Of a stretch of DNA of 64,000 bases, positions 6,160 through 62,163 are shown piece after piece (positions within the stretch are counted from its first letter, which is position 1; every line of letters starts with the position of its first letter). The translations under genes were made by a program, and so were the position numbers. Origin of the DNA: Candidatus Latescibacterota bacterium (GTDB taxonomy: Bacteria > Latescibacterota > UBA2968); contig OZ242320.1 in NCBI GenBank assembly GCA_965208125.1, positions 4,768,001-4,832,000 of the forward strand. Direction: 5' to 3'. The notes beneath the pieces were generated by a model that had not been told where the DNA came from, did no database searches, and saw only the letters and a list, made by a program, of their open reading frames with translations.

Positions 6160-6519
6160 ATGATACACAGGCCAACACCGAATCTGTCCATCCTCATAAA
6201 TTGTCTTAAGTTTTACAAAAACAGTACTTTACCCCCCCCCCCCCCCCCCCCGAATTTTTCAAAATCGACATCACAGTTAGATACGCCCGCCGTACTCGCT
6301 TTCCCAGTCGTTCCTTTCCTCACAGACAAACTTCCTTTCTTTTCCAAATTCTTTTCGATACTCGCCCTGACATTGCTTGTATTTGCAGGGCAGGTGTCTG
6401 CACAGCGTTTGTCGCTCACGCATGATGTTACGGACGGCACAGCAGGTATCAAACTCTATCAAGGAGGAATCCATGTGGTTCATGAAGTCTATAAATTGGA
6501 GCGTGATAACCGCTCTTAA
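6160..6519 (+). pseudogene. Orphan extended leader/signal peptide ORF containing a C20 tract
   Basis: GGGAGG RBS; ends in ILALTLLVFAGQVSAQ..GTAGI, homologous to the N-terminus at 47939; then runs out of frame into the next gene. Confidence 0.55.
6232..6251. repeat. Poly-C homopolymer (20 C)
   Basis: Directly visible; encodes a poly-Pro run in the 6160 ORF. Confidence 0.9.
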
Positions 6520-9500
6520 AACAGCTCTTGCCATTGTCGTATGGCTGGCGATTGGTACGGCGAAAGCAACGCCGATTATGGATCAAGTGTCGGGGCGCGT
6601 GCTGCACTTTGGTGGAACGCCTGTGGTGGATGCCCAGGTGTCCCTGTTCGATTTGACAAATCTGCGTCAGGGACCTGTAGCGCAAGCCACGACAGACGGT
6701 GCGGGTTATTTCACGCTTTCACTGGCCGGGTTGCAAAATCAGGCCGTGTTTCCCGACGGCATTGGACTGGGACAGAACTATCCCAATCCCTTTAATCCTG
6801 CCACGATCATTCCCTACCAGTTGGCAGAGGCATCGCATGTGCGGATTGAGGTGTTCAATGTGTTGGGACAACTCGTTGCGACGCTGGTGGATGCGGAGCA
6901 GGCGGCGGGGTCTCATATTGTGCGGTGGGATGCTCGGGATGCTTCGGGACGAGGTGTGGCTGCGGGGGTGTATCTCTATCGGTTTACGGTTGGTGACATA
7001 ACGCAAGTTCGCCGAATGGTTTTGCTGGACGGCAAAAAGACCCCTGCGCCAATAGGTGGGAGACAGGTTGAAGCAGTGTCCGGTGTGGTGGATGGCCTGC
7101 CCAATCCTATTTATGGTCTGGTGATTTCGGGGCAGAATATGGTCTCCCATGTGGTGTCGGATTTCCAGTTATCTGACAGCTTCATCCCGATGGATATTGT
7201 GATTGACGGGATGGAGAGCGAAAAAAGTACAAAAGTCGTAGCACAGAGCGGAATTTTAGGCGACGCAGACCTCGATGATCAAGTTAATATCGTTGATGCG
7301 TTGCTCGTAGCGGTGTACAGTGCCAATCCCACCGCGATTTCAATTTCCAGTGACGCACATGTTGATGTAAACTGCGACGGTCAAGTCGATATTGTGGATG
7401 CTTTGCTGATCGGTAAGTACAGCATCAATCAGAACGATCCTGATGTACGTCGTGACGCACCGAATATCGGCACATCTAACATTTGTTCTCCCGCGTCCCT
7501 ATCGCCTGATCCATCGACAGTGACGTTTGATACCAACGGCACATGGCATCGGTTTACGATTCAATCGAGTGAGCGGGTTATTGTGGTGGCGAATCCGAGT
7601 GGCACAACCCCGCTTGTGGAGATCAGCACCAGCGGAGGGAGCAACAATTGCCCACCCGAACAAGAGGACGATTATAGCGGCAACAACGGCGAATCCATCT
7701 ACTTGTCTGGTTGTGGTTCAGGGACAGGCACAGTGGAACTGCGTCGGGCTTCGGACAACACAGTTCTTAACACCTATACCTTTGCTATCGGTGTTCAGGC
7801 GTCCCTATCGCCTGATCCATCGACAGTGACGTTTGATACCAACGGCACATGGCATCGGTTTACGATTCAATCGAGCGAGCGGGTTATTGTGGTGGCGAAT
7901 CCGAGTGGCACGACCCCGCTTGTGGAGATCACCACCACCAGCGGAGCGCGCAACCTTTGCCCAGCCGAACAGGATGACGATTATAGCGGCAACAACGGCG
8001 AATCCATCTACTTGTCTGGTTGTGGTTCAGGGACAGGCACAGTGGAACTGCGTCGGGCTTCGGACAACACGGTTCTTAACACCTATACCTTTGCTATCGG
8101 TACTGATTCTCGTGCTTCTCAGCCGCGGGGTATCACATACGCCAACAACCGGTTCTATGTGGTTGATAGGCAGGATGATAAGGTGTATGTGTACACGAGT
8201 TCTGGCGGGCGTGTTTCGAGTGCAGACTTCAATCTGGATAGCAACAACGGTAATCCGCAGGGTATCACATACGCCAATAACAGATTCTATGTGGTTGATT
8301 GGACAGATATAAAGGTGTATGTGTACACGAGTTCTGGCGGGCGTGTTTCGAGTGCAGACTTCAATCTGGATAGCAATAACACTAATCCATCGGGTATCAC
8401 ATACGCCAACAACCGATTCTATGTGGTTGATTACGATGATGCTAAGGTGTATGTGTACAACAGTTCTGGCGGGCGTGTTTCGAGTGCAGACTTCAATCTG
8501 GCCAGTGCCAACACTACTCCGGGTGGTATCACATACGCCAACAACCGATTCTATGTGGTTGATATAGGTGATGCTAAGGTGTATGTGTACAACAGTTCTG
8601 GTCAGCGTGTTTCAAGTGCAGACTTCAATCTGGATAGCAATAACACTGATCCGAATGGTATCACTTATACCAACGACCGACTCTATGTGGCTGATAGGGA
8701 CGATGATCAGATCTATAGTTACGATGTCAGTGGAGGAGGTGGTGGTGGTGGCAGTCCAGACCTGATCGTTGAATCGCCTTCGGTCAGCGATAACACCTTG
8801 ACGACAGGACAATCCTTCACCCTACAGACAACTGTCCGTAACCAGGGCTCAGGATCGTCCGCCTCGACCACGCTATATTATTATCGCTCGTCAAACTCGA
8901 CGATTTCGCCCAGCGATACACAAGTAGGCACAGATTCGGTGAGTGGACTTTCAGCTTCTGGCACGAGTTCTGAGTCTATAAGCTTGAATGCGCCATCCAG
9001 TGCGGGTACGTATTACTACGGTGCATGTGTGGCAAGCGTCAGTGGCGAGAGCGATACAGGAAATAATTGTTCAGATGGCGTTCAGGTAACGGTCAGCAGT
9101 AGCAGTGATGATCACGGGAATAGTCGTTCTACGGCGACACAGGTATCGTCAAATAGTACGACGAATGGGCAGATTTCTCCTGTGGGCGATGTGGACTATT
9201 TTCGGGTTGACGTAAGTGGTTCTGGGACACTAACAGCTTATACGACGGGAAGTACGGATACCGAGGGCCAATTGCAGGATAGCTCAGGCAACCTCCTTGA
9301 TTCCGATGATGATACAGGCGACCTCAACTTCCGGGTTTCAGCATCGGTGAGTGCAGGGACGTACTACATCCGGGTAATCGAACATGCTAATAACGATACA
9401 GGAAGCTACACCCTGCATGTCTCTGTTACTACCTCCACTCCCTCCTCCTTCAATCTGGATAGCTCCAACGGTAATTCGAGTGGTATCACATACGCCAACA

Positions 9501-10072
9501 ACAGATTCTATGTGGTTGATTGGTCGGATGACAAGGTGTATGCGTACACCAGTAGTGGTCAGCGTGTTTCGAGTGCAGACTTCAATCTGGATAGCAACAA
9601 CAGTTATCCGTTGGGTATCACATACGCCAACAACCGCTTCTATGTGCTTGATCACGATGATAGAAAGGTGTATGCGTACACCAGTAGTGGTCAGCGTGTT
9701 TCGAGTGCTGACTTCAATCTGGATAGCTCGGGTGGTGGTATCACATACACCAACAACCGCTTCTATATGGTTGCTCCCTCAGATGCCAAGGTGTATGCGT
9801 ACACCAGTAGTGGTCAGCGTGATGCGAGTGCAGACTTCAATCTGGATAGCAACAACAGTACAGGATCGGGTATCACATACGCCAACAACCGCTTCTATGT
9901 GCTTGATTTTGAGGATTACAAGGTGTATGCGTACACCAGTAGTGGTCAGCGTGTTTCGAGTGCAGACTTCAATCTGGATAGCAATAACGCTGGTGCGAAT
10001 GGTATCACGTATGCCAACAACAGATTCTATGTGGTTGATCAGCGGTATGACAAGGTGTATGTGTACGAGTAG
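6473..10072 (+). CDS. Secreted modular protein: signal peptide, FlgD/T9SS-tail-like, dockerin-like, 2x Ig-like, 5x propeller repeat, CARDB, PPC, 5x propeller repeat
   Basis: AAGGAGG RBS before ATG 6473; LGQNYPNPFNP; GDADLDDQVNIVDA/DVNCDGQVDIVDA; GITYANNRFYVVD repeats; PDLIVESP; GDVDYFRV. Confidence 0.85.
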   Translation: MWFMKSINWSVITALKTALAIVVWLAIGTAKATPIMDQVSGRVLHFGGTPVVDAQVSLFDLTNLRQGPVAQATTDGAGYFTLSLAGLQNQAVFPDGIGLGQNYPNPFNPATIIPYQLAEASHVRIEVFNVLGQLVATLVDAEQAAGSHIVRWDARDASGRGVAAGVYLYRFTVGDITQVRRMVLLDGKKTPAPIGGRQVEAVSGVVDGLPNPIYGLVISGQNMVSHVVSDFQLSDSFIPMDIVIDGMESEKSTKVVAQSGILGDADLDDQVNIVDALLVAVYSANPTAISISSDAHVDVNCDGQVDIVDALLIGKYSINQNDPDVRRDAPNIGTSNICSPASLSPDPSTVTFDTNGTWHRFTIQSSERVIVVANPSGTTPLVEISTSGGSNNCPPEQEDDYSGNNGESIYLSGCGSGTGTVELRRASDNTVLNTYTFAIGVQASLSPDPSTVTFDTNGTWHRFTIQSSERVIVVANPSGTTPLVEITTTSGARNLCPAEQDDDYSGNNGESIYLSGCGSGTGTVELRRASDNTVLNTYTFAIGTDSRASQPRGITYANNRFYVVDRQDDKVYVYTSSGGRVSSADFNLDSNNGNPQGITYANNRFYVVDWTDIKVYVYTSSGGRVSSADFNLDSNNTNPSGITYANNRFYVVDYDDAKVYVYNSSGGRVSSADFNLASANTTPGGITYANNRFYVVDIGDAKVYVYNSSGQRVSSADFNLDSNNTDPNGITYTNDRLYVADRDDDQIYSYDVSGGGGGGGSPDLIVESPSVSDNTLTTGQSFTLQTTVRNQGSGSSASTTLYYYRSSNSTISPSDTQVGTDSVSGLSASGTSSESISLNAPSSAGTYYYGACVASVSGESDTGNNCSDGVQVTVSSSSDDHGNSRSTATQVSSNSTTNGQISPVGDVDYFRVDVSGSGTLTAYTTGSTDTEGQLQDSSGNLLDSDDDTGDLNFRVSASVSAGTYYIRVIEHANNDTGSYTLHVSVTTSTPSSFNLDSSNGNSSGITYANNRFYVVDWSDDKVYAYTSSGQRVSSADFNLDSNNSYPLGITYANNRFYVLDHDDRKVYAYTSSGQRVSSADFNLDSSGGGITYTNNRFYMVAPSDAKVYAYTSSGQRDASADFNLDSNNSTGSGITYANNRFYVLDFEDYKVYAYTSSGQRVSSADFNLDSNNAGANGITYANNRFYVVDQRYDKVYVYE

Positions 10073-10383: not shown

Positions 10384-13300
10384 ATGTGGTTCATGAAGTC
10401 TATAAATTGGAGCGTGATAACCGCTCTTAAAACAGCTCTTGCCATTGTCGTATGGCTGGCGATTGGTACGGCGAAAGCAACGCCGATTATGGATCAAGTG
10501 TCGGGGCGCGTGCTGCACTTTGGTGGAACGCCTGTGGTGGATGCCCAGGTGTCCCTGTTCGATTTGACAAATCTGCGTCAGGGACCTGTAGCGCAAGCCA
10601 CGACAGACGGTGCAGGTTATTTCACGCTTTCACTGGCCGGGTTGCAAAATCAGGCCGTGTTTCCCGACGGCATTGGACTGGGGCAGAACTATCCCAATCC
10701 CTTTAATCCAGCCACGATCATACCCTACCAGTTGGCAGAGGCATCGCATGTGCGGATCGAGGTGTTCAATGTGTTGGGGCAACTCGTTGCGACGCTGGTG
10801 GATGCGGAGCAGGCGGCGGGTTCTCATATTGTGCGGTGGGATGCTCGGGATGCTTCGGGACGAGGTGTGGCTGCGGGGGTGTATCTCTATCGGTTTACAG
10901 TTGGTGACATAACGCAAGTTCGCCGAATGGTTTTGCTGGACGGCAAAAAGACCCCTGCGCCAATAGGTGGGAGACAGGTTGAAGCAGTGTCCGGTATGGT
11001 GGATGGCCTGCCCAATCCTATTTATGGTCTGGTGATTTCGGGGCAGAATATGGTCTCCCATGTGGTGTCGGATTTCCAGTTATCTGACAGCTTCATCCCG
11101 GTGGATATTGTGATCGATGGGGTGGAGAGCGAAAAAAGTACAAAAGTCGTAGCACAGAGCGGAATTTTAGGCGACGCAGACCTCGATGGTCAAGTTAATA
11201 TCGTTGATGCGTTGCTCGTAGCCGTGTACAGTGCCAATCCCACCGCGATTTCAATTTCCAGTGACGCACATGTTGATGTAAACTGCGACGGTCAAGTCGA
11301 TATTGTGGATGCCTGGCTGATCGGTAAGTACAGCATCAATCCGAACGATCCTGATGTACGTCGTGACGCCCCGAATATCGGCACATCTAACATTTGTTCT
11401 CCCGCGTCCCTATCGCCTGATCCATCGACCGTGACGTTTGACACCAACGGCACCTGGCATCGGTTTACGATTCAATCGAGTGAGCGGGTTATTGTGGTGG
11501 CGAATCCGAGTGGCACGACCCCGCTTGTGGAGATCAGCGCCAGCAGCGGAGAGAGCAACCTTTGTCCACCCGAACAGAATGATGAGATAACCCGCAACAA
11601 CGGCGAATCCATCTACTTGTCTGGTTGTGGTTCAGGGACAGGCACAGTGGAACTGCGTCGGGCTTCGGACAATACGGTTCTTAACACCTATACCTTTGCT
11701 ATCGGTGTCCAGGCGTCCCTATCGCCTGATCCATCGACCGTGACGTTTGATACCAATGGCACCTGGCATCGGTTTACGATTCAATCGAGCGAGCCGGTTA
11801 TTGTGGTGGCGAATCCGAGTGGCACAACCCCGCTTGTGGAGATTACCGACACCAGCGGAGAGGACAATTTTTGCCCACCCGAACAGGAGGACGATTATAG
11901 CGGCAACAACGGCGAATCCATCTACTTGTCTGGTTGTGGTTCAGGGACAGGCACAGTGGAACTGCGTCGGGCTTCGGACAACACGGTTCTTAACACCTAT
12001 ACCTTTGCTATCGGTACTGATTCTCATGCCCCTCAGCCGCGTGGTATCACGTATGCCAACAACCGCTTCTATGAGGTTGATCACGATGATGATAAGGTGT
12101 ATGTGTACAACAGTTCTGGTCAGCGTGATGCGAGTGCAGACTTCAATCTGGATAGCAATAACGGTAATCCGAATGGTATCACATACGCCAACAACCGCTT
12201 CTATGTGGTTGATCACAATGATGATAAGGTGTATGTGTACAACAGTTCTGGTCAGCGTGTTTCGAGTGCAGACTTCAATCTGGATAGCAATAACGGTAAT
12301 CCGGAAGGTATCACCTACGCCAACAACCGCTTCTATGTGGTTGATTGGATAGATGCCAAGGTGTATGTGTACACCAGTAGTGGACAGCGTGTTTCGAGTG
12401 CAGACTTCAATCTGGATAGCAATAACGGTACTGCAACGGGTATCACGTATGCCAACAACCGCTTCTATGTGGTTGATTACGATGATGCTAAGGTGTATGT
12501 GTACACCAGTAGTGGTCAGCGTGTTTCGAGTGCAGACTTCAATCTGGATAGCAATAACGGTAATCCGCTGGGTATCACTTATACCAACGACCGGCTCTAT
12601 GTGGCTGATAGGGACGATGATCAGATCTATAGTTACGATGTCAGTGGAGGAGGTGGTGGTGGCAGTCCAGACCTGATCGTAGAATCACCTTCGGTCAGCG
12701 ATAACACCTTGACAGCGGGACAATCCTTCACCCTACAGGCAACTGTCCGCAATCAGGGCACTGGTCAATCTGCTGCAACGACCTTGCGGTATTACCAATC
12801 TGCCAATGCGACCATATCTGCCAGCGACACACGGGTAGGCAGTGGTGCGGTAGGCAGCCTGAATGCTTCGAGCAGCAGTGTGGAATCAATCAGTTTGAAT
12901 GCGCCATCCAGTGCGGGTACGTATTACTACGGTGCGTGTGTTACGTCTGTGTCTGGTGAATCGAAGACGAATAACAACTGCTCTGTTGGTGTGCGCGTCA
13001 CGGTCAGCAGTAGCGGTGATGATCACGGGAATAGTCGTTCTACGGCGACACAGGTATCGTCAGGTAGTATGACGAATGGGCAGATTTCTCCTGTGGGCGA
13101 TGTGGACTATTTTCGGGTTGACGTAAGTGGTTCTGGGACACTAACAGCTTATACGACGGGAAGTACGGATACCGAGGGCCAATTGCAGGATAGCTCAGGC
13201 AACCTCCTTGATTCCGATGATGATACAGGCGACCTCAACTTCCGGGTTTCAGCATCGGTGAGTGCAGGGACGTACTACATCCGGGTAATCGAACATGCTA

Positions 13301-13995
13301 ATAACGATACAGGAAGCTACACCCTGCATGTCTCTGTTACTACCTCTACTCCCTCCTCCTTCAATCTGGATAGCAATAACGGTGATGCGTATGGTATCAC
13401 ATACGCCAACAACCGCTTCTATGTGACTGATTATTGGGGTGATGATAAGGTGTATGTGTACAACAGTTCTGGGCAGCGTGTTTCGAGTGCAGACTTCAAT
13501 CTGGATAGCGACAACACTCGTCCGACTGGTATCACGTATGCCAACAACAGATTCTATGTGCTTGATCTTGATGATGACAAGGTGTATGTGTACAACAGTT
13601 CTGGGCAGCGTGTTTCGAGTGCAGACTTCAATCTGGATAGCAATAACGGTGATGCGTTTGGTATCACATACGCCAACAACCGCTTCTATGTGACTGATTA
13701 TCAGGATGCAAAGGTGTATGTGTACAACAGTTCTGGCGGGCGTGTTTCGAGTGCAGACTTCAATCTGGATAGCAATAACGGTGGTCCAACGGGTATCACA
13801 TACGCCAACAACCGCCTCTATGTGGTTGATTACGGGGATGACAAGGTGTATGTGTACAACAGTTCTGGCGGGCGTGTTTCGAGTGCAGACTTCAATCTGG
13901 ATAGCGACAACAGTAATCCAACGAGTATGACATACGCCAACAACCGCTTCTATGTGGTTGATGAGGGGGCTGACAAGGTGTATGTGTACGAGTAG
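10384..13995 (+). CDS. Secreted modular protein, paralog of 6473 with the same architecture and different variable residues
   Basis: Same RBS, leader and domain order; differences cluster in repeat variable positions and CARDB. Confidence 0.85.
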   Translation: MWFMKSINWSVITALKTALAIVVWLAIGTAKATPIMDQVSGRVLHFGGTPVVDAQVSLFDLTNLRQGPVAQATTDGAGYFTLSLAGLQNQAVFPDGIGLGQNYPNPFNPATIIPYQLAEASHVRIEVFNVLGQLVATLVDAEQAAGSHIVRWDARDASGRGVAAGVYLYRFTVGDITQVRRMVLLDGKKTPAPIGGRQVEAVSGMVDGLPNPIYGLVISGQNMVSHVVSDFQLSDSFIPVDIVIDGVESEKSTKVVAQSGILGDADLDGQVNIVDALLVAVYSANPTAISISSDAHVDVNCDGQVDIVDAWLIGKYSINPNDPDVRRDAPNIGTSNICSPASLSPDPSTVTFDTNGTWHRFTIQSSERVIVVANPSGTTPLVEISASSGESNLCPPEQNDEITRNNGESIYLSGCGSGTGTVELRRASDNTVLNTYTFAIGVQASLSPDPSTVTFDTNGTWHRFTIQSSEPVIVVANPSGTTPLVEITDTSGEDNFCPPEQEDDYSGNNGESIYLSGCGSGTGTVELRRASDNTVLNTYTFAIGTDSHAPQPRGITYANNRFYEVDHDDDKVYVYNSSGQRDASADFNLDSNNGNPNGITYANNRFYVVDHNDDKVYVYNSSGQRVSSADFNLDSNNGNPEGITYANNRFYVVDWIDAKVYVYTSSGQRVSSADFNLDSNNGTATGITYANNRFYVVDYDDAKVYVYTSSGQRVSSADFNLDSNNGNPLGITYTNDRLYVADRDDDQIYSYDVSGGGGGGSPDLIVESPSVSDNTLTAGQSFTLQATVRNQGTGQSAATTLRYYQSANATISASDTRVGSGAVGSLNASSSSVESISLNAPSSAGTYYYGACVTSVSGESKTNNNCSVGVRVTVSSSGDDHGNSRSTATQVSSGSMTNGQISPVGDVDYFRVDVSGSGTLTAYTTGSTDTEGQLQDSSGNLLDSDDDTGDLNFRVSASVSAGTYYIRVIEHANNDTGSYTLHVSVTTSTPSSFNLDSNNGDAYGITYANNRFYVTDYWGDDKVYVYNSSGQRVSSADFNLDSDNTRPTGITYANNRFYVLDLDDDKVYVYNSSGQRVSSADFNLDSNNGDAFGITYANNRFYVTDYQDAKVYVYNSSGGRVSSADFNLDSNNGGPTGITYANNRLYVVDYGDDKVYVYNSSGGRVSSADFNLDSDNSNPTSMTYANNRFYVVDEGADKVYVYE

Positions 13996-14282: not shown

Positions 14283-15842
14283 ATGTGTAAGCACTTGACA
14301 CTTGTCGCACTCATTGGACTCTTTTTCGCAGATCAAGTCTCTGCTACTTCTCATACAGATCCAGACTTTAACGACGATGGAATCGTCAATGAATTGGACT
14401 TAAGGCTCCTTATTTCCAATTGGGGAACGCGAGCAGGTGGACCAAATTGGGATGCGAAGATCGATCTGAATAGTGATGGGATCGTCAATGAATTGGACTT
14501 AAGGCTCCTTATTTCCAATTGGGGCAAGACATTTCCAGTGATACTGAGCGAGCGCGATGTACTGGTGGCGCTATACAATGCGACGGGTGGCGCCAATTGG
14601 ACAAATAACACCAATTGGCTCACGAACAACGACATTTCCACCTGGCATGGTGTCAGCGTTTCTAACGGTTTGGTTACAGGCCTGGACCTTAGTAATAATA
14701 ATCTGATGGGGGAGATTCCCGCGGAATTAGGCAACTTGACCAACCTGACAAGGCTGTATCTTTCCGACAACAGTATTTCGGATGTGTCAGCCCTGTCTAA
14801 CCTGACAAACCTGACAAACCTGACAAGGCTGTATCTTTCCGGCAACAGTATTTCGGATGTGTCAGCCCTGTCTAACCTGACTAATCTGACAGAGCTGTGG
14901 CTTTCCTCCAACAGCATCTCGGATGTGTCAGCCCTGTCTAACCTGACAAACCTGACAGAGCTGAGGCTTTACAACAACAGCATCTCGGATGTGTCAGCCC
15001 TGTCTAACCTGACTAATCTGACAGAGCTGTGGCTTCGCAACAACAGCATCTCGGATGTGTCAGCCCTGTCTAACCTGACAAACCTGACATGGCTGTCTCT
15101 TGGAGGCAACAGCATCTCGGATGTGTCAGCCCTGTCTAACCTGACTAATCTGACAGAGCTGTGGCTTCGCAACAACAGCATCTCGGATGTGTCAGCCCTG
15201 TCTAACCTGACAAACCTGACATGGCTGTCTCTTGGAGGCAACAGCATCTCGGATGTGTCAGCCCTGTCTAACCTGACTAATCTGACAGAGCTGTGGCTTT
15301 CCTCCAACAGCATCTCGGATGTGTCAGCCCTGTCTAACCTGACCAATCTGACAACGCTGGGGCTTCAGAATAACAGCATCTCGGATGTGTCAGCCCTGTC
15401 TAACCTGACAAACCTGACATGGCTGTCTCTTGGAGGCAACAGCATCTCGGATGTGTCAGCCCTGTCTAACCTGACTAATCTGACAGAGCTGTGGCTTTCC
15501 TCCAACAGCATCTCGGATGTGTCAGCCCTGTCTAACCTGACCAATCTGACAACGCTGGATCTTTACAACAACAGCATCTCGAACCTTTCGCCTTTGGTCG
15601 CAAATACGGGTTTGGGCAGTGGGGACTATGTTGATGTGAGGAACAACCCCCTGAGTGCTACATCACTCAACACGCACATTCCAGCCCTTCAGGCAAGAGG
15701 GGTTAATGTGCAGTTTGGCGCAGGGAAGCCTGCGGTGGAGGAGATAGAGCGGGGCATGATACCTGAGGAATGGGAGACAAGAACCCCGATCCACCACCCA
15801 ACGGACGGGCACAGGGGCACCGCTCCTTCAATTCAGCGATGA
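14283..15842 (+). CDS. Secreted dockerin/EF-hand plus internalin-type LRR protein (13 near-identical 22-aa LRRs)
   Basis: AAGGAG RBS; MCKHL signal peptide; DFNDDGIVN/DLNSDGIVN; ERDVLVALYNAT cap; SISDVSALSNLTNLT repeats; VDVRNNPLS C-cap. Confidence 0.88.
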   Translation: MCKHLTLVALIGLFFADQVSATSHTDPDFNDDGIVNELDLRLLISNWGTRAGGPNWDAKIDLNSDGIVNELDLRLLISNWGKTFPVILSERDVLVALYNATGGANWTNNTNWLTNNDISTWHGVSVSNGLVTGLDLSNNNLMGEIPAELGNLTNLTRLYLSDNSISDVSALSNLTNLTNLTRLYLSGNSISDVSALSNLTNLTELWLSSNSISDVSALSNLTNLTELRLYNNSISDVSALSNLTNLTELWLRNNSISDVSALSNLTNLTWLSLGGNSISDVSALSNLTNLTELWLRNNSISDVSALSNLTNLTWLSLGGNSISDVSALSNLTNLTELWLSSNSISDVSALSNLTNLTTLGLQNNSISDVSALSNLTNLTWLSLGGNSISDVSALSNLTNLTELWLSSNSISDVSALSNLTNLTTLDLYNNSISNLSPLVANTGLGSGDYVDVRNNPLSATSLNTHIPALQARGVNVQFGAGKPAVEEIERGMIPEEWETRTPIHHPTDGHRGTAPSIQR

Positions 15843-43064: not shown

Positions 43065-43338
43065 GGTTCCTCTGTATTCACAAGATTCCACTTTGCCAGG
43101 GTATTTTTCAGGCGTCTTTTGCCAGAAAGTATCATAAGGATAGCACTTTTGCACAACTATTTTTTTTCTTGATGTTACGCATGTCTCGCGTTTGGGCAGA
43201 AAGCGGAAGCCTTTGCCCTTTCGCAATCGCGGCTGGATGTCCAAAAGTGCAGTTGCTAACCAGCGCGAGTGTTGATTTGAATTTGTCCATCGCTTCACAT
43301 TTCTGGTCCGTTGAACACTATTTACACAGGAGAATCTG

Positions 43339-47696: not shown

Positions 47697-47712
47697 TGGC
47701 ACACTTTTTGCT
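47697..47712 (+). promoter_or_regulatory. Sigma-54 -24/-12 promoter
   Basis: TGGCACACTTTTTGCT with correct GG-N10-GC spacing, in an AT-rich region right after the activator gene. Confidence 0.8.
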
Positions 47713-53139: not shown

Positions 53140-53311
53140 GTTCAGGATGTACGCGGGACTTGTGGTCGGATTATGGACCTGACGGGGGGTGTATTTAGGG
53201 GCAGGGAGGCGAGGTGTGCTCTTGGGAAGTTGAAAGACCATTAAAGTGGTTGAAAAGCCTGCGTTTTTGGTTTTTCTGACCGCTGACTACTGACTGCCGC
53301 TAATATGCGGT

Positions 53312-53399
53312 TCATGCGCGTGCGACTTCAAAGGCCGTTATGTTGCGGGTGTTCTTGCTGAATTCTACACCTATCAGGTGGATGGGCTGGTCAAGGCCA
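53312..53399 (-). pseudogene. 3' fragment of the AAA-PD(D/E)XK gene
   Basis: GLDQPIHLIGVEFSKNTRNITAFEVARA*. Confidence 0.85.
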
Positions 53400-53582
53400 A
53401 GGCCGCGGCAGGAAGTACTGCAAATTCTACCAACAGATGTATTGTAGGGTAGTGCCCGCGTGCCCGATAGCGCTGTATTTCTATCCTGTAGGGAGGAAGT
53501 AGAAAATGATACACAGGCCATCAGATCGGGATAACTCCGACAATGCTGATAAATGTCGATTTTTTTATGGAGGAAAACGGCT

Positions 53583-56500
53583 ATGTGGGGTTGTTTGCTT
53601 AAAGGATTCCGGTTTATTGTCGTCCTTGGGTTGCTGGCGTTAGTAGGCCAGGTGTTTACTGGTCCCAACGCCAGCGTCGTTCCGTTGTCGTCGTGTCCCG
53701 GTGATTTCGATGGCAATGGGCGTGTGGATCTTGCTGACTTTCTGGCTTTTGCGGGTGCGTTCGGCGCGCGGTCTGGGGAGGCCAAATATAACGCGGATAT
53801 GGATATGGATGGCAGCGGTGCCATAGATGTGTCGGATTTCCTGGCCTTTGCCGGAGTATTCGGGACCACCTGCCAGGACCCTCCTGACGGTTCGGTCAGC
53901 GGGGACCGGGAGGCGCTTGTGGCGTTGTACAATGCGACAGATGGGCCGAACTGGGTCAATAACGGGAACTGGCTGACAGAGGCACCACTGGGGGACTGGT
54001 ATGGGGTGGACACGGACGAGTCGGGGCGAGTCGTTCGTCTTGTGCTCGCAGGCCACTTTGATGACGAAGTCCGAACCTACGTGTCGTTTGGCCTCCTGGG
54101 CTGGATCCCGCCAGAACTCGGGAATCTAACGCACCTGGAGAAGCTTGATCTACACATCAACGGTCTGGTAGGCACGATCCCGGCGGAGCTCGGGAATCTA
54201 ACGCACCTGAAGGAGCTTTCCCTCGGCTGGAACAGGTTGTCAGGTGTAATACCGCCGAAGCTTGGTGGCCTCACAAACCTGGAAAGGCTTCACATGCGAT
54301 CGAACACTCTGACGGGACCGATTCCGCCAGAGTTGAGGGGCCTCGCTAACCTGAAGCATCTGGATCTATCACAAAACGAACTAACGGGCGGTATTCCCAC
54401 GTCGTTTAGCGGGTTTGTAGAGCTTGAGAGGTTGCAGCTAGGCGGAAACAACTTTACGGGACCGATTCCGCTGGAACTTGCCAACCTTAGCAAGTTGTCA
54501 TCTCTATCTCTCTACGACAACGAGTTGACAGGACCGATTCCGCCGGAACTTGCCAACATCGAGAGGTTGTGGTTCCTGTCGCTGCACAGCAACGGCCTGA
54601 CGGGACCGATTCCACCGGAGCTCGGTAACCTTGGTAATCTGGAGAGCCTGAATTTGGGCAATAACAACCTGACGGGACCGATTCCACCGGAGCTTGGCAA
54701 CCTTGGTAATCTGGAGAGCCTGAATTTGAGCAATAACAACCTGATCGGCCAGGTTCCGCCAGAGCTGGGCAGGCTCACCCAACTGCAGGACCTTGTAATG
54801 TCTGACAACCTGCTGATGGGAGCGCTTCCGTTGAACTTTGTGGAACTCACGAACTTGCAAAACCTTGGCTGCCGAAGGACTGAAGGCGTTTGCGTCCCGG
54901 CGACGGATGAGTTCAGAGAGTGGGCGCGGCAGGTGGAGTCCCGAGGGAACACGCAATGGCCAGTGGACATCCCGTTTTGCGACGAGATTGATGCGGGTGT
55001 CTTGGAGGATCTCTATCAAGCCGCGAACGGCTCTATCTGGACGCGGTCCGATGGCTGGCTCAAGGACGAGAACCTGAGTCGGTGGCACGGGGTGCAGACC
55101 GATCCGATTGGGCGGGTCTCCGGTCTCGATCTGAGCGGCAACGGGCTGTCGGGGTATGTTCCGGAAGTCCTGGGGCAACTGGCGAGCCTGACGAGCTTGA
55201 GGATCGGGGACAACGCGTTGAGTGGCCGGCTGCCCCTGTCGCTGTCTGGCGTGTCGCTGGAAGAGTTCGACTACGGAGGCACGTCTCTGTGTGTGGCAGA
55301 CGATGCCGGATTCCAGAAATGGCTGAACGGCATCCCGCGCCACAGCGGGACGGGGGTGCAGTGTCCTCCTCTCACGGAACGTGAGATTCTCGAATGGTTG
55401 TATCGGAATACGGACGGTGCGAACTGGAACGAGAGCACGGGTTGGCTGACCGAAGTCCCCTTGGCTCAGTGGCATGGCGTGGAGACCGATGCTGCTGGCC
55501 GAGTCGTCGGGCTGCGACTTCCGAACAATGGCCTGACCGGCTCGCTTCCGGTGGAACTCGGAGAGTTATCGCAACTCAGGCAGTTGGATCTTGTCGCCAA
55601 CGGTTTGTCGGGTTCGATCCCGCCGGAAATGGGTGGCCTGGACCGTCTTGAGTGGCTCGCCCTTGCCAGTAATCAACTCAGTGGAAACATTCCTTCGAAA
55701 CTCGGCAAGCTTTCGGAACTAAGGTATCTAAGTCTTAGGCGGAACCGGCTTTCGGGTTCGATTCCGCCGGCGTTGGGTAACCTGGGCAGTCTTGTGTCAC
55801 TCGACCTCGGGTCGAATCAATTCAGCGGCGAGATCCCGCGGGATCTCGCTAGGCTTGTCAACGTGACCCGGTTGGGGCTCGGCAGGAACTTTCTTTCGGG
55901 TCCGGTTCCACCGGAACTGGGTAATCTGATCCGTCTAAGGGTGCTCGCCCTTGAAGAGAATCAACTCAGCGGGGACATCCCTTCGGAACTCGGCAACCTC
56001 GGCGCAATCGAGTCCATCAGGCTTGCCGATAACGAGTTGACCGGCCGCATTCCGCCACAGCTTGGTGCATTGGACCGTCTTTCGGTTTTAGACCTGTCGG
56101 GCAACCAGTTGACCGGTCCGATTCCTGCGGAACTTGGCGGTCTTTCCGGTCTTTCGGAGTTCCAGTTGTTCGGCAACGAGTTGTCGGGATTGATTCCCGT
56201 GGAATTGGGTGATCTGGCCAACCTGGCCACGCTGAATCTGGGCGATAATGAACTCACGGGACCACTGCCCACTGAACTCGGGTACGCCGCAAAGCTGGAG
56301 GGTCTCGACGTGCGGTCCAACGCGCTGACCGGTCCAGTGCCGCCCGAATTTGGCAATCTCACGCTGCTGAAGTCGCTGATTCTCGCTGACAACCCTGGTC
56401 TGTCCGGGCCGCTACCTCCCGGTATTGCGTCATTGGGGCAACTCGAACAGTTCATGGCGGGGGGGACCGCACTGTGTCGTCCGGCGGATTCCGAGTTTAC

Positions 56501-58040
56501 CGCATGGTTCCGTGCCATTGGTGAACGCCGTCTGGTGCGTTGCGAGGGCGGGGCCGCCGTGTATCTCACTCAGGCCGTCCAGTCGTGGGACGATCCGGTG
56601 CCGCTGCTGGCGGGAGAGCCAGCGTTGCTGCGTGTCTTCGTGACGGCGCTACATGGTGGTACGGCCACAATGCCCGATGTCCGGGCTACGTTCTTTGTGG
56701 ATGGCGTGGAGCGGCACACCGTCCATATCGCCGCAGGTACACAGTCTATCCCCCAGGAGGTCTCGGAAGGGGATCTTGCGCTGTCGGCTAACGCCGAGAT
56801 TCCGGCATCGCTCGTGGTGCCTGGCCTGGAGATGGTGATCGAAGTTGATCCAGAAGGTGCTCTGGACCCGGCGCTTGGAGTGACGAAACGGATTCCGGAG
56901 GAAGGCCGAACAGCCGTTGATGTGCGGCGCATGCCGTCCTTGCACTTGACACTGATCCCGTTTCTTTGGGAGGCCGAACCGGACTTGTCACTCATCGAGA
57001 CCGTCTCCGCAATGGCGGCGGATCCGGATGGTCACGAGTTGCTGCGCAATGTGCGGAGACTCCTGCCAATTGCGGGAATCAATGTCATGGCGCGCGAGCC
57101 TGTCACCACATCGACTCAGGATAGTCGCAGAAGGCTGTCGCAGGTTGAAGCCATTCGCATCATGGAAAACGGCTTGGGATACTGGATGGGCGTATCGAGT
57201 TTCAGGCGTGCGCCCGGGTTCCGTACGGTTCCATCAGCCGCCGGGCGTGCCTTCGTCGGCGGACGGGCGAGCATGGCGTTGGCAAACCCTAAGACCATCG
57301 CCCATGAACTGGGACACAACCTCTCGCTCAGGCACGCACCCTGTGGTGGTGCTGGGGGCCTGGACCCCTGGTTCCCGCATCATCAGGGGAGCATTGGGGT
57401 TTGGGGATACGATTTTGACCGGGAGTCATTGGTGCCGCCGGACGCCGCTGACATCATGTCCTATTGCTCGGGAGTCAACTGGATCAGCGATTTCTTTTTT
57501 AACAAGGCGCTCAACCACCGCCTCGCCAACGAAGGTGCCACGACGACCGCATTGACCGCGGAAGCGGATCCCACACGCTGCCTCCTATTCTGGGGCGGAC
57601 GGGATGAAGACGGCGTCCCGTACCTGGATCCCGCCTTCATCGTGGAAGCCACACCGTCTGTTCCAGCTTCAGGCGGAGAGTACACCATTGAGGGAGCGGC
57701 TGCTGACGGGATGCCCGTCTTTTCGTTCAGCTTTGATATGCCTGTCACTGCAGACGCTGCGGGCGAAGAGACGAGCTTCGTGTTCGCGTTGCCTGTCCAG
57801 CGCGAATGGGTAGGAAATCTGGCGAGTATCACGCTTTCTGGACCTGGTGGCTTGGCCACCCTGGACGAGAGCACGGACCGTCCAATGGCTATCCTGCGCG
57901 ATCAGCGAACGGGTCAGGTACGTGGCTTTCTGTCGGACCTTCCTTCAGGGGAAGCGGCTCAGGCGGCTGCGAAAAGCGCGGCTGCGGCGAAACCAGGAGT
58001 GGAAGTGCTCTTCAGCCGGGGTATCTCGGATCTACGGTAA
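53583..58040 (+). CDS. Secreted EF-hand/dockerin, three LRR blocks, M66-like zinc metalloprotease
   Basis: GGAGG RBS; CPGDFDGNGRVDLADF; LTGPIPPELGNL LRRs; AHELGHNLSLRHAPCG, DIMSYC. Confidence 0.88.
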   Translation: MWGCLLKGFRFIVVLGLLALVGQVFTGPNASVVPLSSCPGDFDGNGRVDLADFLAFAGAFGARSGEAKYNADMDMDGSGAIDVSDFLAFAGVFGTTCQDPPDGSVSGDREALVALYNATDGPNWVNNGNWLTEAPLGDWYGVDTDESGRVVRLVLAGHFDDEVRTYVSFGLLGWIPPELGNLTHLEKLDLHINGLVGTIPAELGNLTHLKELSLGWNRLSGVIPPKLGGLTNLERLHMRSNTLTGPIPPELRGLANLKHLDLSQNELTGGIPTSFSGFVELERLQLGGNNFTGPIPLELANLSKLSSLSLYDNELTGPIPPELANIERLWFLSLHSNGLTGPIPPELGNLGNLESLNLGNNNLTGPIPPELGNLGNLESLNLSNNNLIGQVPPELGRLTQLQDLVMSDNLLMGALPLNFVELTNLQNLGCRRTEGVCVPATDEFREWARQVESRGNTQWPVDIPFCDEIDAGVLEDLYQAANGSIWTRSDGWLKDENLSRWHGVQTDPIGRVSGLDLSGNGLSGYVPEVLGQLASLTSLRIGDNALSGRLPLSLSGVSLEEFDYGGTSLCVADDAGFQKWLNGIPRHSGTGVQCPPLTEREILEWLYRNTDGANWNESTGWLTEVPLAQWHGVETDAAGRVVGLRLPNNGLTGSLPVELGELSQLRQLDLVANGLSGSIPPEMGGLDRLEWLALASNQLSGNIPSKLGKLSELRYLSLRRNRLSGSIPPALGNLGSLVSLDLGSNQFSGEIPRDLARLVNVTRLGLGRNFLSGPVPPELGNLIRLRVLALEENQLSGDIPSELGNLGAIESIRLADNELTGRIPPQLGALDRLSVLDLSGNQLTGPIPAELGGLSGLSEFQLFGNELSGLIPVELGDLANLATLNLGDNELTGPLPTELGYAAKLEGLDVRSNALTGPVPPEFGNLTLLKSLILADNPGLSGPLPPGIASLGQLEQFMAGGTALCRPADSEFTAWFRAIGERRLVRCEGGAAVYLTQAVQSWDDPVPLLAGEPALLRVFVTALHGGTATMPDVRATFFVDGVERHTVHIAAGTQSIPQEVSEGDLALSANAEIPASLVVPGLEMVIEVDPEGALDPALGVTKRIPEEGRTAVDVRRMPSLHLTLIPFLWEAEPDLSLIETVSAMAADPDGHELLRNVRRLLPIAGINVMAREPVTTSTQDSRRRLSQVEAIRIMENGLGYWMGVSSFRRAPGFRTVPSAAGRAFVGGRASMALANPKTIAHELGHNLSLRHAPCGGAGGLDPWFPHHQGSIGVWGYDFDRESLVPPDAADIMSYCSGVNWISDFFFNKALNHRLANEGATTTALTAEADPTRCLLFWGGRDEDGVPYLDPAFIVEATPSVPASGGEYTIEGAAADGMPVFSFSFDMPVTADAAGEETSFVFALPVQREWVGNLASITLSGPGGLATLDESTDRPMAILRDQRTGQVRGFLSDLPSGEAAQAAAKSAAAAKPGVEVLFSRGISDLR

Positions 58041-58137: not shown

Positions 58138-58579
58138 TCATGCGCACAGTGTTTGCCATAAGGCGGGTTGAGTCTTTCTCCAGATAGCGCAACAGGCTGC
58201 GATTGAGGCTCTGGCGCACTTCCCGATTGGGATAACCCAACCGATAGAGGGATGCGCCGCCGAGGTTCTCTTTCTCTGTAATGGTGAGGTAGCCGGTCTG
58301 GAATAGCAATGCCTTTGTTGCCATGTCATCGACGTCAAAGGTGGATAACAACTCGTCGCCGCCGATCATGTTATCCAATTCGAGGGAACTGACGCGGCGA
58401 TTGAACAGGGTTTCGATGAGGAAGGTGGGTGTGCCGGTCTCGAACCAGTATGTGCCAAAGGTGCGCTTGTCAAAGAGCAGGAGGATGTCAAAGGGGTTGT
58501 ACACCTTTTCGTCACCAAGCCAGCTATAGCCATTGTACCAGTCGCGGATGTCTTCTCTGTCCAGGCCGGGTAGTTCTGG
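58138..58579 (-). pseudogene. Internal fragment of the AAA-PD(D/E)XK gene fused to its own 3' end
   Basis: PELPGLDR...LMANTV joined at GCGC to the terminal bases. Confidence 0.88.
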
Positions 58580-58582
58580 ATT

Positions 58583-58609
58583 GTAGGGGTAGTACCCCTG
58601 TGCCTGTCC
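58583..58609 (+). repeat. GTAG-type REP-like element (related copies at 47873, 53444 and inverted at 15803)
   Basis: GTAGGGGTAGTACCCCTGTGCCTGTCC and variants. Confidence 0.55.
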
Positions 58610-58648
58610 GCTAACGCTGTATTCTATCCTATAGGGAGGGATTGAAAA

Positions 58649-58795
58649 ATGACACGCAAGAATTTCCTTTTGATGCTCGCCTTGACGTTGCTTGTGTGTG
58701 CAAGTCAGGTGTCTGCACAGGGTCCAAGTGTGTCGCTCAGGCATGTTCCCGATGCAGGTGGCACCGAAGGCATCGTTATTTTCACCAATATATAG
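58649..58795 (+). pseudogene. Orphan copy of the 47939 leader (48 aa)
   Basis: MTRKNFLLMLALTLLVCASQVSAQGPSVSLRHVPDAGGTEGI, then divergence and stop. Confidence 0.8.
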
Positions 58796-58806: not shown

Positions 58807-61800
58807 ATGCGCAAATATCTATTGTCCATCCCGATGATTCTGCTTTTGCTCGTCGGGGCTGCCTTTGCACAAACGGTTAATTTTTCTCTAACGGGCCTCG
58901 ACGGCAAGACATATAGTGCCTCTGACTATCGCGGCAAAGTGCTCATACTTGCTATCATCGGATATAGCTGACCATCCTGTAGAGCCGCGGGTCCGCGACT
59001 CGAAAGTTTATGGCAAGATTATAAATCAAACCCCGATGTTGCCATGCTCGGTCTTGATGCCTGGAATGGCAGTCCGTCACAGGTTGAGGCTTTTCGCACC
59101 GCTTCGAGTGTCACTTTTCCCATGCTTCTAAATGCTGGTAGTTCTGCCCCGGCCTCGTATGAGAATCTCGTTGTTGTTGGTCCCGATGGAACTGTGGCAT
59201 TGCCTGCCACGGGTAATCTGAGTTCAAGTTCTGTTACTAGCGTGAAAGCCAAGGTTAATGAACTGTTGACGCAACTACCGCTTCCTCTCGATCCCCAGCT
59301 TCATCTGGATACACAGATTGAAAGTCCTGCACAGAACAACAGTGTGCTGATCTTCACGGACAAGAGACCGGGTGATACCCTCCAAATTCAGCTTTTTGTG
59401 CCAAATGCAGCAGGGCAAAACATCCAGGCTTTCACACTCGAACTGGCCTTACAGGGCAAGACATTTACCGATTTTATCAGCAGCATATCCGGCAGTGATT
59501 GGACAGGTGGCGACCTATTCCCTGGAACATCTGCATCTAACCTCCCAACGCTGAGTGGGTTGTTTCTCAATGCTGCACCTGTGCCTATGACGGGGTATCT
59601 GGGTCAAATAGACCTTGAGGTGATCGGTGTGCTGAGCGACGAAGACAAGTTGCGCGTCACCAGTGCTTTCCTCGCTGTTGCGGGTGGGACACTACAATCT
59701 ATGGATGTGTCCGATGCGGAGGTTTCCTTTGCGCCAATCTGTCCTGGAGATTTTGACGACAATGGGATCGTCAACATGGCAGATTTTATGCTCTTTGAGG
59801 GGGTGTTTGGCACGCGGTCTTCGGATGCTGCTTACAATGCACTGATGGACATGGACAGCAGTGGGGGTATAGATGTGGCAGATTTTATGCTCTTTGTCGA
59901 TGTATTCGACACTACCTGTAAGCAACAACCTCCGGGTGATGGCGGTGGTGGACAAACGGGAGTTTCTATTCCGGATGCGAACCTTCGTGCTGTGATTGAG
60001 GACAGTCTGAGTAAGGCGAGCGGTGCGCCGATCACGCAGGCAGAGATGGCGACTCTGACCCACCTTGATGCTCGAAATAAGATGATTAGCAATTTGACGG
60101 GACTCGAGTTCGCAACCAATTTGGAAACTTTGTACCTTTCCGGCAACAATATCAAGGAATTGTCCTCGGACGTGTTTTCTCGCCTTGGGAAACTGCAAAC
60201 ACTGGATTTAAGTAGCAACCGGGAACTGATGGTGTTGCCACCCAATGTATTCGCTGGTCTCCACAAGCTTAGCTCTCTATCTTTCAGTTATACGCAGATA
60301 GAAGCGTTGCCCGCCAACGTGTTTGCCGGGCTCAACAACCTCGAACACTTATCCTGTTATTCGAATACATCACTCACGTCGTTGCCTCCGGGTATATTCA
60401 ACGGTCTCGCAAATCTCAGACAGCTGGTCCTGGAGACGAATGGATTGACATCATTGCCTTCCGGCGCATTCGATGATCTCACCAATCTGCAATCTTTGTG
60501 GTTGAGAGGGAACAGACTGACGTCGTTGCCTATGGGTGTATTCGACGGGCTCATAAACCTCGAAGATTTGAGATTGAAGAGCAATCTGCTGACTGAGCTG
60601 CCTGGACACGTGTTTTCAGATCTCAACAACCTCAAAGAGCTGAGTCTGGGAAATAATCAATTGAGCGAATTGCCCGACAACTTGTTTGTCGGCCTCAGTA
60701 GTGTTAAAAACCTCTCTTTGGACGGGAATCCGGGTGCTCCGTTTCCGCTCACCGTGGAACTCAAACGTACGGATACGACGAACGAGTTGGCGCCCGGTCC
60801 CGCCGACTTCGCGGTCAGACTAGCGCCTGGAACCCCCTTCGACGTCGATATATTGTTGTTCGTGCACAACGGCACGGCATCCGCTGCTTCGCTGACGATC
60901 GACGCAGGCGACGCCACCAGCAGTGCCTCCGCAAGTGTCACGGCCTCTGCGGGCGCGTCAGGCGCGACCGTGATCAACCTGGGGCCGGTGCCCCGGGTGC
61001 CGGGTGGATTCAGCGGCCTCGAAGTGCGTGCGGGCGCTCCGCTTGTACTGTTCTCGAAATCCGACAACCGGCAACCCGTTGCAGCAGGAAACATACCGTC
61101 CCATGTCCTTCAGGTTGGCAGCCACCAGGCCATATTGGATCTGGGAGATTACTTCTCGGATGAGGACGGCGATCAACTGTCGTTTTCAGTCGTGTCAAAC
61201 GACATTAGTGTTGTCGAGCACGGGGTGGATGACGGATCGATGACGTTGATTCCAATCAACGTGGGCGATGTCTCGGTTGGCGTCACCGCGACGGATTCTG
61301 AAGGATTCAGTGTTTCGCAGAGCATGTTCGTTACAGTGCTGCCCGCGCCGGACCCCGGTTCGTTCGACATTGACCTTGTCTTTGTTACTCCGGTCTCGGA
61401 AGAGACGCGCCTGGCCGCGCAACGGCAGGTCGAACGATGGACCGAAGTCATTAAGGGCGACTTGCCGGAGGTATCCATATCAGGCGACTTCGTCGACTGC
61501 GGGACGTGGATGAGGGGCGCCGATCATCGTTTCTTTGGGAAGGTGGACGACCTTGTGGTCTTCGTGCAAATCGCTACCATTAGTGGAGGTCAAGGACTCG
61601 GAGGTCCGTGCGGATTGCGCGATGGATCCTTCCTACCATACACGGGAGGTCTCGTATTGGACGTGGAGTCGGCGGGCACGCCTGACGGCGGAGCGCAAAC
61701 AATTCTTCATGAGATAGGGCATGTGATAGGAATCGGGACTATATGGGACAAGCTCGGATTTCTGCAAGGAAGTGGCGGGGACGACCCCCATTTCAGCGGC

Positions 61801-62163
61801 CCGCTGGCCATAGCGGCGTTTGACGCAGCGGGAGGCGAGAACTACAGAGGAAGTAAGGTGCCCATTTCAAGCGACCTGGGACATTGGGCTGGGGATGCCT
61901 TTGGTTGGGGGTACCCGCGAGAACTCATGATGGTAAGTGGCGGTACTGTTCTCAGTGCCATTACGATCCAGTCCCTGGCCGATCTTGGCTACGTCGTCGA
62001 CGTCACGAAAGCGGATCCGTTCCGGCTACCAGATGCCGGGGAGACGACCGCAAGCAAGACCGTCATCCTTCGTGACGATATCCCGAGAGGGCCAATGTCC
62101 ATCGTCAATGAAAACGGGCGCGTTCTGCGTGTCGTGGACGACGGAAACAGTTCAGATTATTGA
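58807..62163 (+). CDS. Probable secreted selenoprotein: redoxin (UxxC), cohesin-like, EF-hand, LRR, Ig-like, leishmanolysin/M8-like metalloprotease
   Basis: The ORFs ending at 58971 and starting at 59044 are in one frame with a single TGA: SDYRGKVLILAIIGYS-U-PSCRAAGPRLESLWQDY; LHEIGHVIGIG, HW and ELM motifs. Confidence 0.85.
58982..59001 (+). promoter_or_regulatory. Candidate bacterial SECIS hairpin
   Basis: GAG-c-CGCG-GGTC-CGCG-a-CTC; the GGUC loop starts 18 nt after the TGA. Confidence 0.7.
59278..60052 (+). repeat. ~775-bp module shared with 48413-49188
   Basis: Near-identical DNA encoding PLPLDPQL...QAEMA in two otherwise different genes. Confidence 0.92.

Follow-up and report, generated by a model that had tools for sequence, protein, structure and literature searches.

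A mosaic array of genes for secreted, dockerin-tagged repeat proteins between hemC and cobA in a Latescibacterota genome

We analysed a window of 64,000 nucleotides (contig OZ242320.1 of Candidatus Latescibacterota bacterium, positions 4,768,001-4,832,000), in which an array of about 56 kb lies between hemC and cobA/hemD. Its twelve large secreted genes (A-G, I, J, M, N and O; the letters K and L denote other genes of the array; Table 1) are mosaics of shared modules, in which a leader is followed by a docking module, recognition repeats and sometimes then a peptidase. We consider it likely that a family of secreted, dockerin-tagged repeat proteins has expanded in this lineage by birth-and-death evolution, at a recombination hot spot between hemC and cobA. 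The mosaic itself, the unequal ages of its blocks, their sharp junctions, the remnants of dead genes, the hypervariability of the interval and the exchanged leader of gene J are all directly visible in the DNA.

The genome of origin is a metagenome-assembled genome (MAG) with an estimated contamination of 5%, assembled as a single 5.75-Mb contig (51% GC, no N). The host of the bacterium is probably a sponge; a sponge-metagenome run contains a 2,484-bp contig that is 96% identical to gene E. Sponge symbionts are rich in eukaryote-like repeat proteins; at this young locus the process by which such repertoires arise and diversify can be read at the DNA level as multi-gene duplication, deletion fusion with almost no homology, gene conversion and decay.

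Shared blocks at the hemC-cobA interval

Self-BLAST of the window gave 473 high-scoring segment pairs, none of them a minus-strand (inverted) match, and DNA blocks 87-99% identical recur in differing combinations across the twelve genes. A previous reading of the DNA without database searches (the sequence-only reading) had described twelve co-oriented secreted genes that reuse near-identical modules in varying combinations; every block that it listed was recovered by self-BLAST, and Pfam confirmed NHL-type propellers, CARDB, PPC, LRR, YWTD, S8, vWA, LamG and FG-GAP domains. The MWFMKS leader block is present in the four copies reported, 94-99% identical (6451-7491, 10362-11402, 18836-19909 and 23847-24920). 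Genes A and B are 90% identical over 3.87 kb, B and F 93% over 2.7 kb (up to 13018 and 26539, respectively), and a PPC block is common to 9106-9428, 13017-13339 and 19913-20238 at 90-91%. The MCK leader, ascribed earlier to the genes at 14283, 33401 and 35456 (C, I and J), corresponds to a block that is 95% identical between 14223-14813 and 35391-35986, with a shorter copy at 33368-33508. A LamG-leader block (15899-16974 and 28494-29564, 96%) and a block common to D and I (16979-18761 and 33479-35252, 87%) meet in D, where a G-type 5' end joins an I-type part; this is the fusion of a LamG leader to propellers that had been noted at 16817. The dockerin block common to M and O (the genes at 47939 and 58807), previously put at 775 bp, measures 792 bp at 97.3% identity (48413-49203 and 59278-60068). 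The blocks and the Pfam domains together support the order of leader, docking, recognition and effector modules.

All twelve large genes lie on the plus strand, and each has its own start and signal peptide; their N-termini were judged hydrophobic and signal-peptide-like by eye, with no predictor. Terminator-like hairpins recur within the repeated spacers. The window ranks first among 64-kb bins of the genome for repeats of at least 300 bp and at least 85% identity, holding 29,661 of the genome's 235,463 repeat bases, and in a genome search copies above 88% identity were almost entirely confined to it. The next-ranked bins represent a different phenomenon, internal tandem repeats within giant genes. 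Giant genes at 1,688,906-1,705,663 and 1,706,682-1,710,735 of the genome contain long internal tandem repeats of 85-96% identity, whose offsets suggest periods of about 680 and about 336 bp.

The blocks differ widely in age. Between A and B, synonymous divergence (dS) per 50 codons is 0-0.15 in the leader, 0.6-1.15 in the CARDB region (8723-9175), 0 in PPC (9176-9325) and about 0.23 in the second propeller, a heterogeneity (chi2 = 118.5, df 22, p = 3e-15) that was reached in 0 of 2000 column permutations. The longest identical run of the two genes, 276 nt, abuts their most diverged stretch, and 225 bp are 100% identical between them; within the diverged CARDB stretch B and F are 96% alike and A stands apart. 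Orthologues of the flanking genes show dS of 0.20-0.46 against relatives (eight for hemA and hemC, five for cobA). On this scale the leader (dS 0.03-0.15) and PPC blocks arose after the nearest sequenced species had diverged, the CARDB stretch predates that divergence, and the D/I pair (dS 0.27) dates from about the time of it. The four MWF leaders differ at 54 singleton, nine informative and five multi-state sites, and A and B have two deletions in common; no tree could be drawn for the four, their differences being mostly singletons.

Similarity also extends across gene boundaries. The 3' end of A, the spacer and the 5' end of B (9482-11402) match the 3' end of D, the spacer and the 5' end of E (17897-19909) at 88% over 2,016 bp, and the equivalent unit of B and C (13446-14813) matches that of I and J (34462-35986). 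A third unit, 15041-16974, comprises the 3' end of C, a cohesin-like open reading frame (ORF) and the 5' end of D; its counterpart, 26826-29564, comprises the 3' end of F, an inserted K remnant, a broken cohesin-like ORF and the 5' end of G. Gene K, which encodes AAA-ATPase_like and PDDEXK_9 domains, lies antisense behind large LRR genes, with one intact copy after J, three decayed copies after F, M and N, and 62 bp of its upstream flank left after C. The remnant of a second heparinase copy points to a larger, putative duplication. At least eight dead remnants can be recognised: K accounts for three, and J, the cohesin-like ORF, the heparinase gene, the 5' end of M and the 3' end of an LRR gene for one apiece.

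At the junctions, near-identity gives way to no similarity within a few bases, with overlaps of 0-4 bp, which argues for illegitimate joins rather than crossovers within shared modules. Gene D is G-like to 16974 and I-like from 16979; in E the leader block runs to about 19909 and PPC begins at 19913; F is B-like to 26539, inside an SSGGGG linker. The proposal that switches tend to fall at domain boundaries or Gly/Ser linkers describes the F joint well and fails for the D joint, which falls within the LamG domain.

The course of events that we infer, in order and direction, would be as follows. Multi-gene units would first have been duplicated in tandem, for example an LRR gene with the antisense K, the cohesin-like gene and a LamG-leader gene, or elsewhere a propeller gene with the 5' end of the next gene. 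Deletions between sites of little or no homology would then have joined 5' and 3' parts of different genes, the in-frame survivors being the chimeras D, E and F and the failures the remnants. Gene conversion or unequal crossing-over between paralogues may continue to re-homogenise some blocks, leaders above all. The products would be exported via Sec signal peptides and could present variable binding surfaces to the host or to its matrix.

The view that recombination made the array with no dedicated recombinase agrees with the heterogeneous dS, the nearly homology-free joints and the lack of inverted matches in the window; Pfam revealed no functional recombinase in view, only a 115-aa rve fragment (43569-43916) and K, the one gene with a PD-(D/E)XK domain. 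A diversity-generating retroelement was rejected, as no reverse transcriptase family occurs in the Pfam-scanned ORFs, which include only some of those below 150 aa. Cassette variation of the shufflon kind was rejected on the separate start and signal peptide of each gene, the lack of inverted matches and the reduction of rve to a 115-aa fragment.

Haem and sirohaem genes flank the array, as identified by Pfam: to its left lie a ccsA-like gene, a gene for the N-domain of sirohaem synthase, hemA and hemC, and to its right cobA/hemD. From the end of hemC (3878) to the start of cobA/hemD (62411) the interval spans 58.5 kb and contains a heparinase II/III-like gene followed by the array. In the 16 relatives with both flanks resolved, it ranges from 24 bp to 13.3 kb and its contents differ. 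It measures 24 bp in four, holds the heparinase gene only in three and a decayed heparinase gene in three, amounts to 0.3-5.8 kb in five and reaches 13.3 kb in one (G001); in one further relative cobA lies 40 kb away on the opposite strand. The same fixed array in relatives, which the sequence-only reading had named as evidence against itself, does not occur among the 16. The locus thus has variable content between conserved flanks, as a genomic island does.

One relative with an interval of 0.3-5.8 kb keeps an LRR 3' fragment beside a K fragment, 79% and 89% identical to the region of F and its K remnant, which indicates that an LRR-K unit was at the site already in the common ancestor. The interval of G001 contains an AAA_15 ATPase gene, two ORFs without an assigned family, the heparinase gene and a gene for a 2,085-aa protein, and the ATPase shows that the hot spot takes up other cargo. 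The AAA_15 (OLD/AbiEii-like) ATPase gene and a 352-aa ORF in this interval (L041, 494-3439) are possibly a defence pair.

Gene J is the sole array gene for which an orthologue was found in a relative. J and the 2,085-aa gene of G001, which occupy the same locus, are close over roughly the last 800 residues of their alignment, which is 65% identical when all its 1157 columns are counted, and the C-terminal peptidase half is kept. The N-terminal module of the G001 gene is of the M/N/O type; J starts with the MCK block, and its first 590 bp are 95% identical to C. Replacement of the leader of an orthologue is thus seen directly in J.

The MWF handle, candidate docking partner and propeller blades

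The N-terminal handle of A, B, E and F (the MWF handle, about 300 aa) consists of a signal peptide, CarboxypepD_reg, a look-alike of the type A sorting domain of the type IX secretion system (T9SS), a short uncharacterised stretch and a dockerin. The look-alike (residues ~107-187) reaches 38.8 bits (cut-off 23), and its last residues, RRMVLL, are those expected of a genuine C-terminus. A sorting domain at the extreme C-terminus is absent from these four proteins, in which TIGR04183 falls at residues ~107-187 of ~1,200-1,500. A database search with the handle scored 8,000 proteins, of which at least 1,719 reached E <= 1e-10; the best non-self match was 50% identical. All eight handle relatives that were sampled have FlgD_ig at ~98-158, and five have a dockerin at ~241-302 (E <= 1e-5); their payloads include LRR, YWTD, P-domain, fibronectin III, cadherin, S8, PD40/DPPIV and ankyrin. 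When 25 handle proteins are aligned, conservation ends at about residue 345. We found no description of this N-terminal handle, for which a conserved cohesin protein may be the partner.

A-F and J each have a Dockerin_1 match above the Pfam cut-off, as does N in a genome search; the dockerin of I lies just below it (21.8 against 22.9 bits). Of the 56 dockerin matches across the genome, 10 fall within the window. Just beyond cobA/hemD, two genes past the array, a gene for a 268-aa protein (L057, 1351-2157) encodes a signal peptide, a cohesin (25.3 bits in the genome search; 23.9 by hmmscan, against a cut-off of 24.1) and a true C-terminal T9SS tail (residues 186-265). At least 4,392 relatives of this protein matched at E <= 1e-10 among 8,000 scored, in Latescibacterota and Gemmatimonadota; most of the 120 relatives listed are 266-269 aa long, and close relatives are 90-96% identical. 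The strong conservation of the cohesin protein contrasts with the equally strong variability of the array. A paralogue at 1,729,277-1,730,102 of the genome also adjoins a dockerin-LRR gene. The genome further contains a PorU-like ORF (E 7e-79 plus 2e-22, below the curated cut-off).

The array dockerins probably dock to cohesin proteins with a T9SS-type tail; a complex prediction for the cohesin of the 268-aa protein and the MWF dockerin scored 0.08 against a mark of 0.32 and gives no evidence either way. More speculatively, Latescibacterota and their neighbours might possess a non-cellulosomal cohesin-dockerin display for host interaction, with the highly conserved 268-aa protein as its anchor for a very large and rapidly evolving family of handle-bearing proteins, payloads swapped by recombination in hot spots such as hemC-cobA and propeller loops under diversifying selection. 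Such a variable-receptor repertoire is a tentative idea, and we think it the less probable outcome.

The array genes are under constraint. The ratio dN/dS (nonsynonymous to synonymous divergence) is 0.29 in the leader, 0.1-0.27 in the CARDB stretch and 0.5-0.9, locally above 1, in the propellers. A simple pattern found 33 propeller blades in A, B, D, F and I, of which 27 are exactly 44 aa long. The consensus of these 27 is GITYANNRFYVVDxxDxKVYVYxSSGQRVxSADFxLDSxNxxPx; most of their variation falls at 11 loop positions and the framework is largely invariant, and a comparison of loops with framework suggests that the blade loops may be under diversifying selection. Blade number varies among the five genes. 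The propellers of D (17199-18523) and I (33696-35014) each have about ten 44-aa blades, which are about 85% identical among themselves at the DNA level, pointing to a probable recent amplification. Recently amplified beta-propellers with near-identical blades are known. The array resembles them in its largely invariant framework but differs in that variation falls in a few loops and blade number differs among paralogues.

Competing origins and known systems

Several observations weigh against a birth-and-death expansion or against the display proposed for its products. The full MWF handle at high identity was found only in the genome of origin (four copies) among 41 genomes searched, and the S8-vWA payload of E was not found in 20 of 20 same-genus genomes searched (E <= 1e-40); parts of the array may therefore have been acquired horizontally. 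GC is uneven along the array, at 0.47-0.61. The two halves of D are of unequal age (96-98% against 87%), which one deletion alone does not explain without later conversion, and the order of events in the array as a whole cannot be reconstructed. As to display, cohesin PF00963 exceeds its cut-off at five places in the genome with marginal scores (24-38 bits against 24.1), and Sec-exported array proteins would still need a route across the outer membrane. In the blades, nonsynonymous differences in the loops (pN 0.43; 0.38 within genes) exceed synonymous differences in the framework (pS 0.24; 0.14 within genes), a contrast inflated on the pN side by the choice of loop positions after their variability had been seen.

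The array could instead be a contingency locus, in which frequent exchange between modules, by homology or microhomology, yields alternative architectures within one population and varies the displayed repertoire; we regard this as improbable. It would account for the very young exchanges between A and B (the 276-nt run and the 225 bp at 100%), for four leaders that are 94-99% identical with star-like differences, for the hypervariable blade loops and for the most repeat-rich 64-kb bin of the genome. We compared Logan short contigs of four runs, three of them from one sample that is possibly the source, over 16000-23800. A 692-bp contig of run X2 spans the D joint with 0 differences, contigs run from E into the next leader in agreement with the reference, and the other contig joints are those expected from the paralogues A, B, G and F on D and E. 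No alternative module order was seen in the contigs of the four runs, a weak point against a contingency locus because short contigs drop rare variants. The genes also do not form one expression site fed by silent cassettes, each having its own start, signal peptide and terminator-like hairpin, and the lack of inverted matches and of a working recombinase, the many remnants and the blocks with dS up to about 1 speak in the same sense. There is no sign of programmed or within-population shuffling in read data of a kind unable to show rare variants. The sequence-only reading had called the array actively reshuffled, for which we find no support; the remnants and a dS range from 0 to about 1 fit ordinary birth-and-death better than a dedicated mechanism of diversification.

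Mosaic genes might also have arrived ready-made from other symbionts at an insertion hot spot, the blocks then reflecting the relatedness of the donors, a scenario to which we assign a small chance. The restricted occurrence of the MWF handle, whose closest database proteins are about 50% identical, the missing E payload and the uneven GC would be expected from import, as would an insertion-sequence remnant and a toxin ORF in the island and the different cargo of G001, AAA_15 ATPase included. Against it, blocks shared at 88-97% identity take in intergenic DNA and cross gene boundaries, the near-identical copies all lie at one locus, and the C-terminal half of J is orthologous at the same locus in G001; moreover, no integrase, tRNA or flanking att-like repeat was found at the island.

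That the chimeras are mis-joined repeats is very improbable, for although the genome was assembled from a metagenome, with contamination put at 5%, and the repeats are 0.3-3.9 kb long, it is a single contig without N, all twelve genes are open through their junctions (O if its TGA encodes selenocysteine), the 692-bp exact contig and the contigs from E into the next leader match (from runs that are possibly of the source sample and not independent), and paralogues differ by 1-13%, which we judge enough for accurate long reads.

A birth-and-death expansion places the array among known themes. Multigene families for surface proteins and effectors of host-associated bacteria are shaped by duplication, conversion and domain shuffling. 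As in these families, paralogues of the array stand in tandem and are identical in a mosaic pattern, their conserved ends evolve in concert, their middles vary and pseudogene remnants occur; the array has neither a single expression site nor a site-specific recombinase, and whole domains or leaders are exchanged at nearly homology-free joints. Sponge-associated Latescibacterota are described as carrying eukaryote-like proteins (ELPs), each genome having many copies of LRR, NHL and TPR repeats (PMC12993501). With its LRR, NHL, YWTD and TPR domains the array belongs with the ELPs of sponge symbionts by domain content, and lineage and presumed host role agree as well; the accessible portion of that paper counts domains per MAG and makes no mention of dockerin, cohesin or duplication, whereas here the origin is seen at the DNA level, with a shared handle and a fixed hot spot. 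For Cloacimonadota, a cellulosome-like complex with a T9SS-tail scaffoldin has been inferred (PMC8542988). The array likewise has dockerins on many secreted payloads, which a cohesin with a T9SS tail could anchor. It differs from such cellulosomes in its N-terminal dockerins, in payloads that for the most part are binding repeats and peptidases and not glycoside hydrolases, and in a putative anchor that is a 268-aa single-cohesin protein. Among open papers we found none on dockerin-tagged ELP arrays or on module shuffling in Latescibacterota. The array is a variant of known themes, combining ELP repertoires, cohesin-dockerin tagging and mosaic multigene families.

Further features of the array

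Table 1. Genes, remnants and other features of the array and its flanks, in window positions
Feature	Position	Strand	Evidence or likeness
hemC, left flank	2946..3878	+	Pfam Porphobil_deam, E 3.8e-83; orthologues in relatives 90-94% identical
heparinase II/III-like gene	3875..5959	+	Pfam; in relatives present, decayed or absent
A: MWF handle, propeller, CARDB, PPC, propeller	6473..10072	+	
B: architecture as A; mosaic identity to A and F	10384..13995	+	
C: MCK leader, dockerin, LRR	14283..15842	+	
small secreted cohesin-like ORF, 148 aa, within the 15899-16974 repeat block	15932..16378	+	signal peptide by eye; Cohesin E 0.0024, below cut-off
D: chimera, G-type 5' end (to 16974), I-type dockerin/propeller (from 16979)	16817..18529	+	
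E: MWF handle, PPC, YWTD, S8, vWA	18858..23312	+	
F: B-like up to 26539 (SSGGGG linker), then LRR	23869..27594	+	
K remnant, internal deletion	27726..28567	-	91-92% to 41504-41992 and 43023-43379
broken copy of cohesin-like ORF	28527..28969	+	split into 77-aa and 79-aa ORFs
G: LamG, TPR; upstream region and first 53 codons common with D	29407..31161	+	
dead J copy: J upstream region and fragment of J 3' part	32188..32761	+	32188-32394 to 35247-35454 (96.6%); 32394-32761 to 39786-40147 (88.9%)
I: MCK leader, dockerin, propeller	33401..35011	+	
J: MCK leader, dockerin, LRR, YWTD, LRR, zincin (HELGHN)	35456..40396	+	
Gp49-like (HigB-type) toxin ORF	40941..41318	-	Pfam PF05973, E 1.3e-21
fragment of LRR-gene 3' end	41237..41401	+	84-85% to 15591-15749 and 27370-27526
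K: AAA-ATPase_like and PDDEXK_9; single intact copy of the unit repeated after F, J, M and N	41517..43298	-	
truncated rve (DDE transposase) remnant, 115 aa	43569..43916	-	Pfam rve, E 1.3e-18; one further partial copy in genome
remnant of second heparinase copy	43916..44143	+	93-96% to 4805-4859 and 5830-6018
L: sigma-54 activator with Reg_prop/Y_Y_Y sensor	44327..47512	+	
perfect sigma-54 -24/-12 consensus match, upstream of M	47697..47712	+	
M: LRR, YWTD, LRR, FG-GAP; 792-bp dockerin block common with O	47939..52774	+	
remnant: downstream region of LRR gene and K 3' end	53185..53398	.	87-90% to 27608-27825 and 41504-41601
N: dockerin, LRR, zincin (weakly M66-like)	53553..58040	+	
K remnant	58139..58579	-	87% to 41922-42362
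remnant of M 5' end, 48-aa ORF	58583..58795	+	
O: signal peptide, thioredoxin-fold domain (U-P-S-C), dockerin block, LRR, HEIGH zincin	58807..62163	+	
cobA/hemD, right flank	62411..63970	+	Pfam

The M66 label given earlier to a zincin of the array is weak: the domain of N reaches 23 bits against a cut-off of 20.6, and that of J, at 14 bits, falls below it. The gene at 58807 (O), previously counted as one gene, is open throughout only if the in-frame TGA at 58969-58971 is read through. This codon replaces the first Cys of a CxxC motif (IIGYS-U-PSC) in a ResA/TlpA-like thioredoxin-fold domain. A GC-rich hairpin lies 11 nt downstream, with a folding z-score of only -1.4, and both tRNA-SeC and SelA are encoded in the genome. 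We take O to be a probable secreted selenoprotein that also carries a dockerin, LRR and a zincin.

A tRNA scan of the window found no tRNA gene, and no Rfam family reached its gathering threshold there. The toxin ORF and its neighbouring stretch are probably a toxin-antitoxin pair in the island. A 336-bp stretch beside this ORF (region 40603-41318) is 91% identical to 2,113,574-2,113,909 of the genome. The sigma-54 consensus match, TGGCAC-N5-TTGC, lies between L and M; the count of sigma-54 promoter matches in the window, two, is not above chance (mean 2.8). Gene L itself has several paralogues elsewhere in the genome, 77-85% identical.

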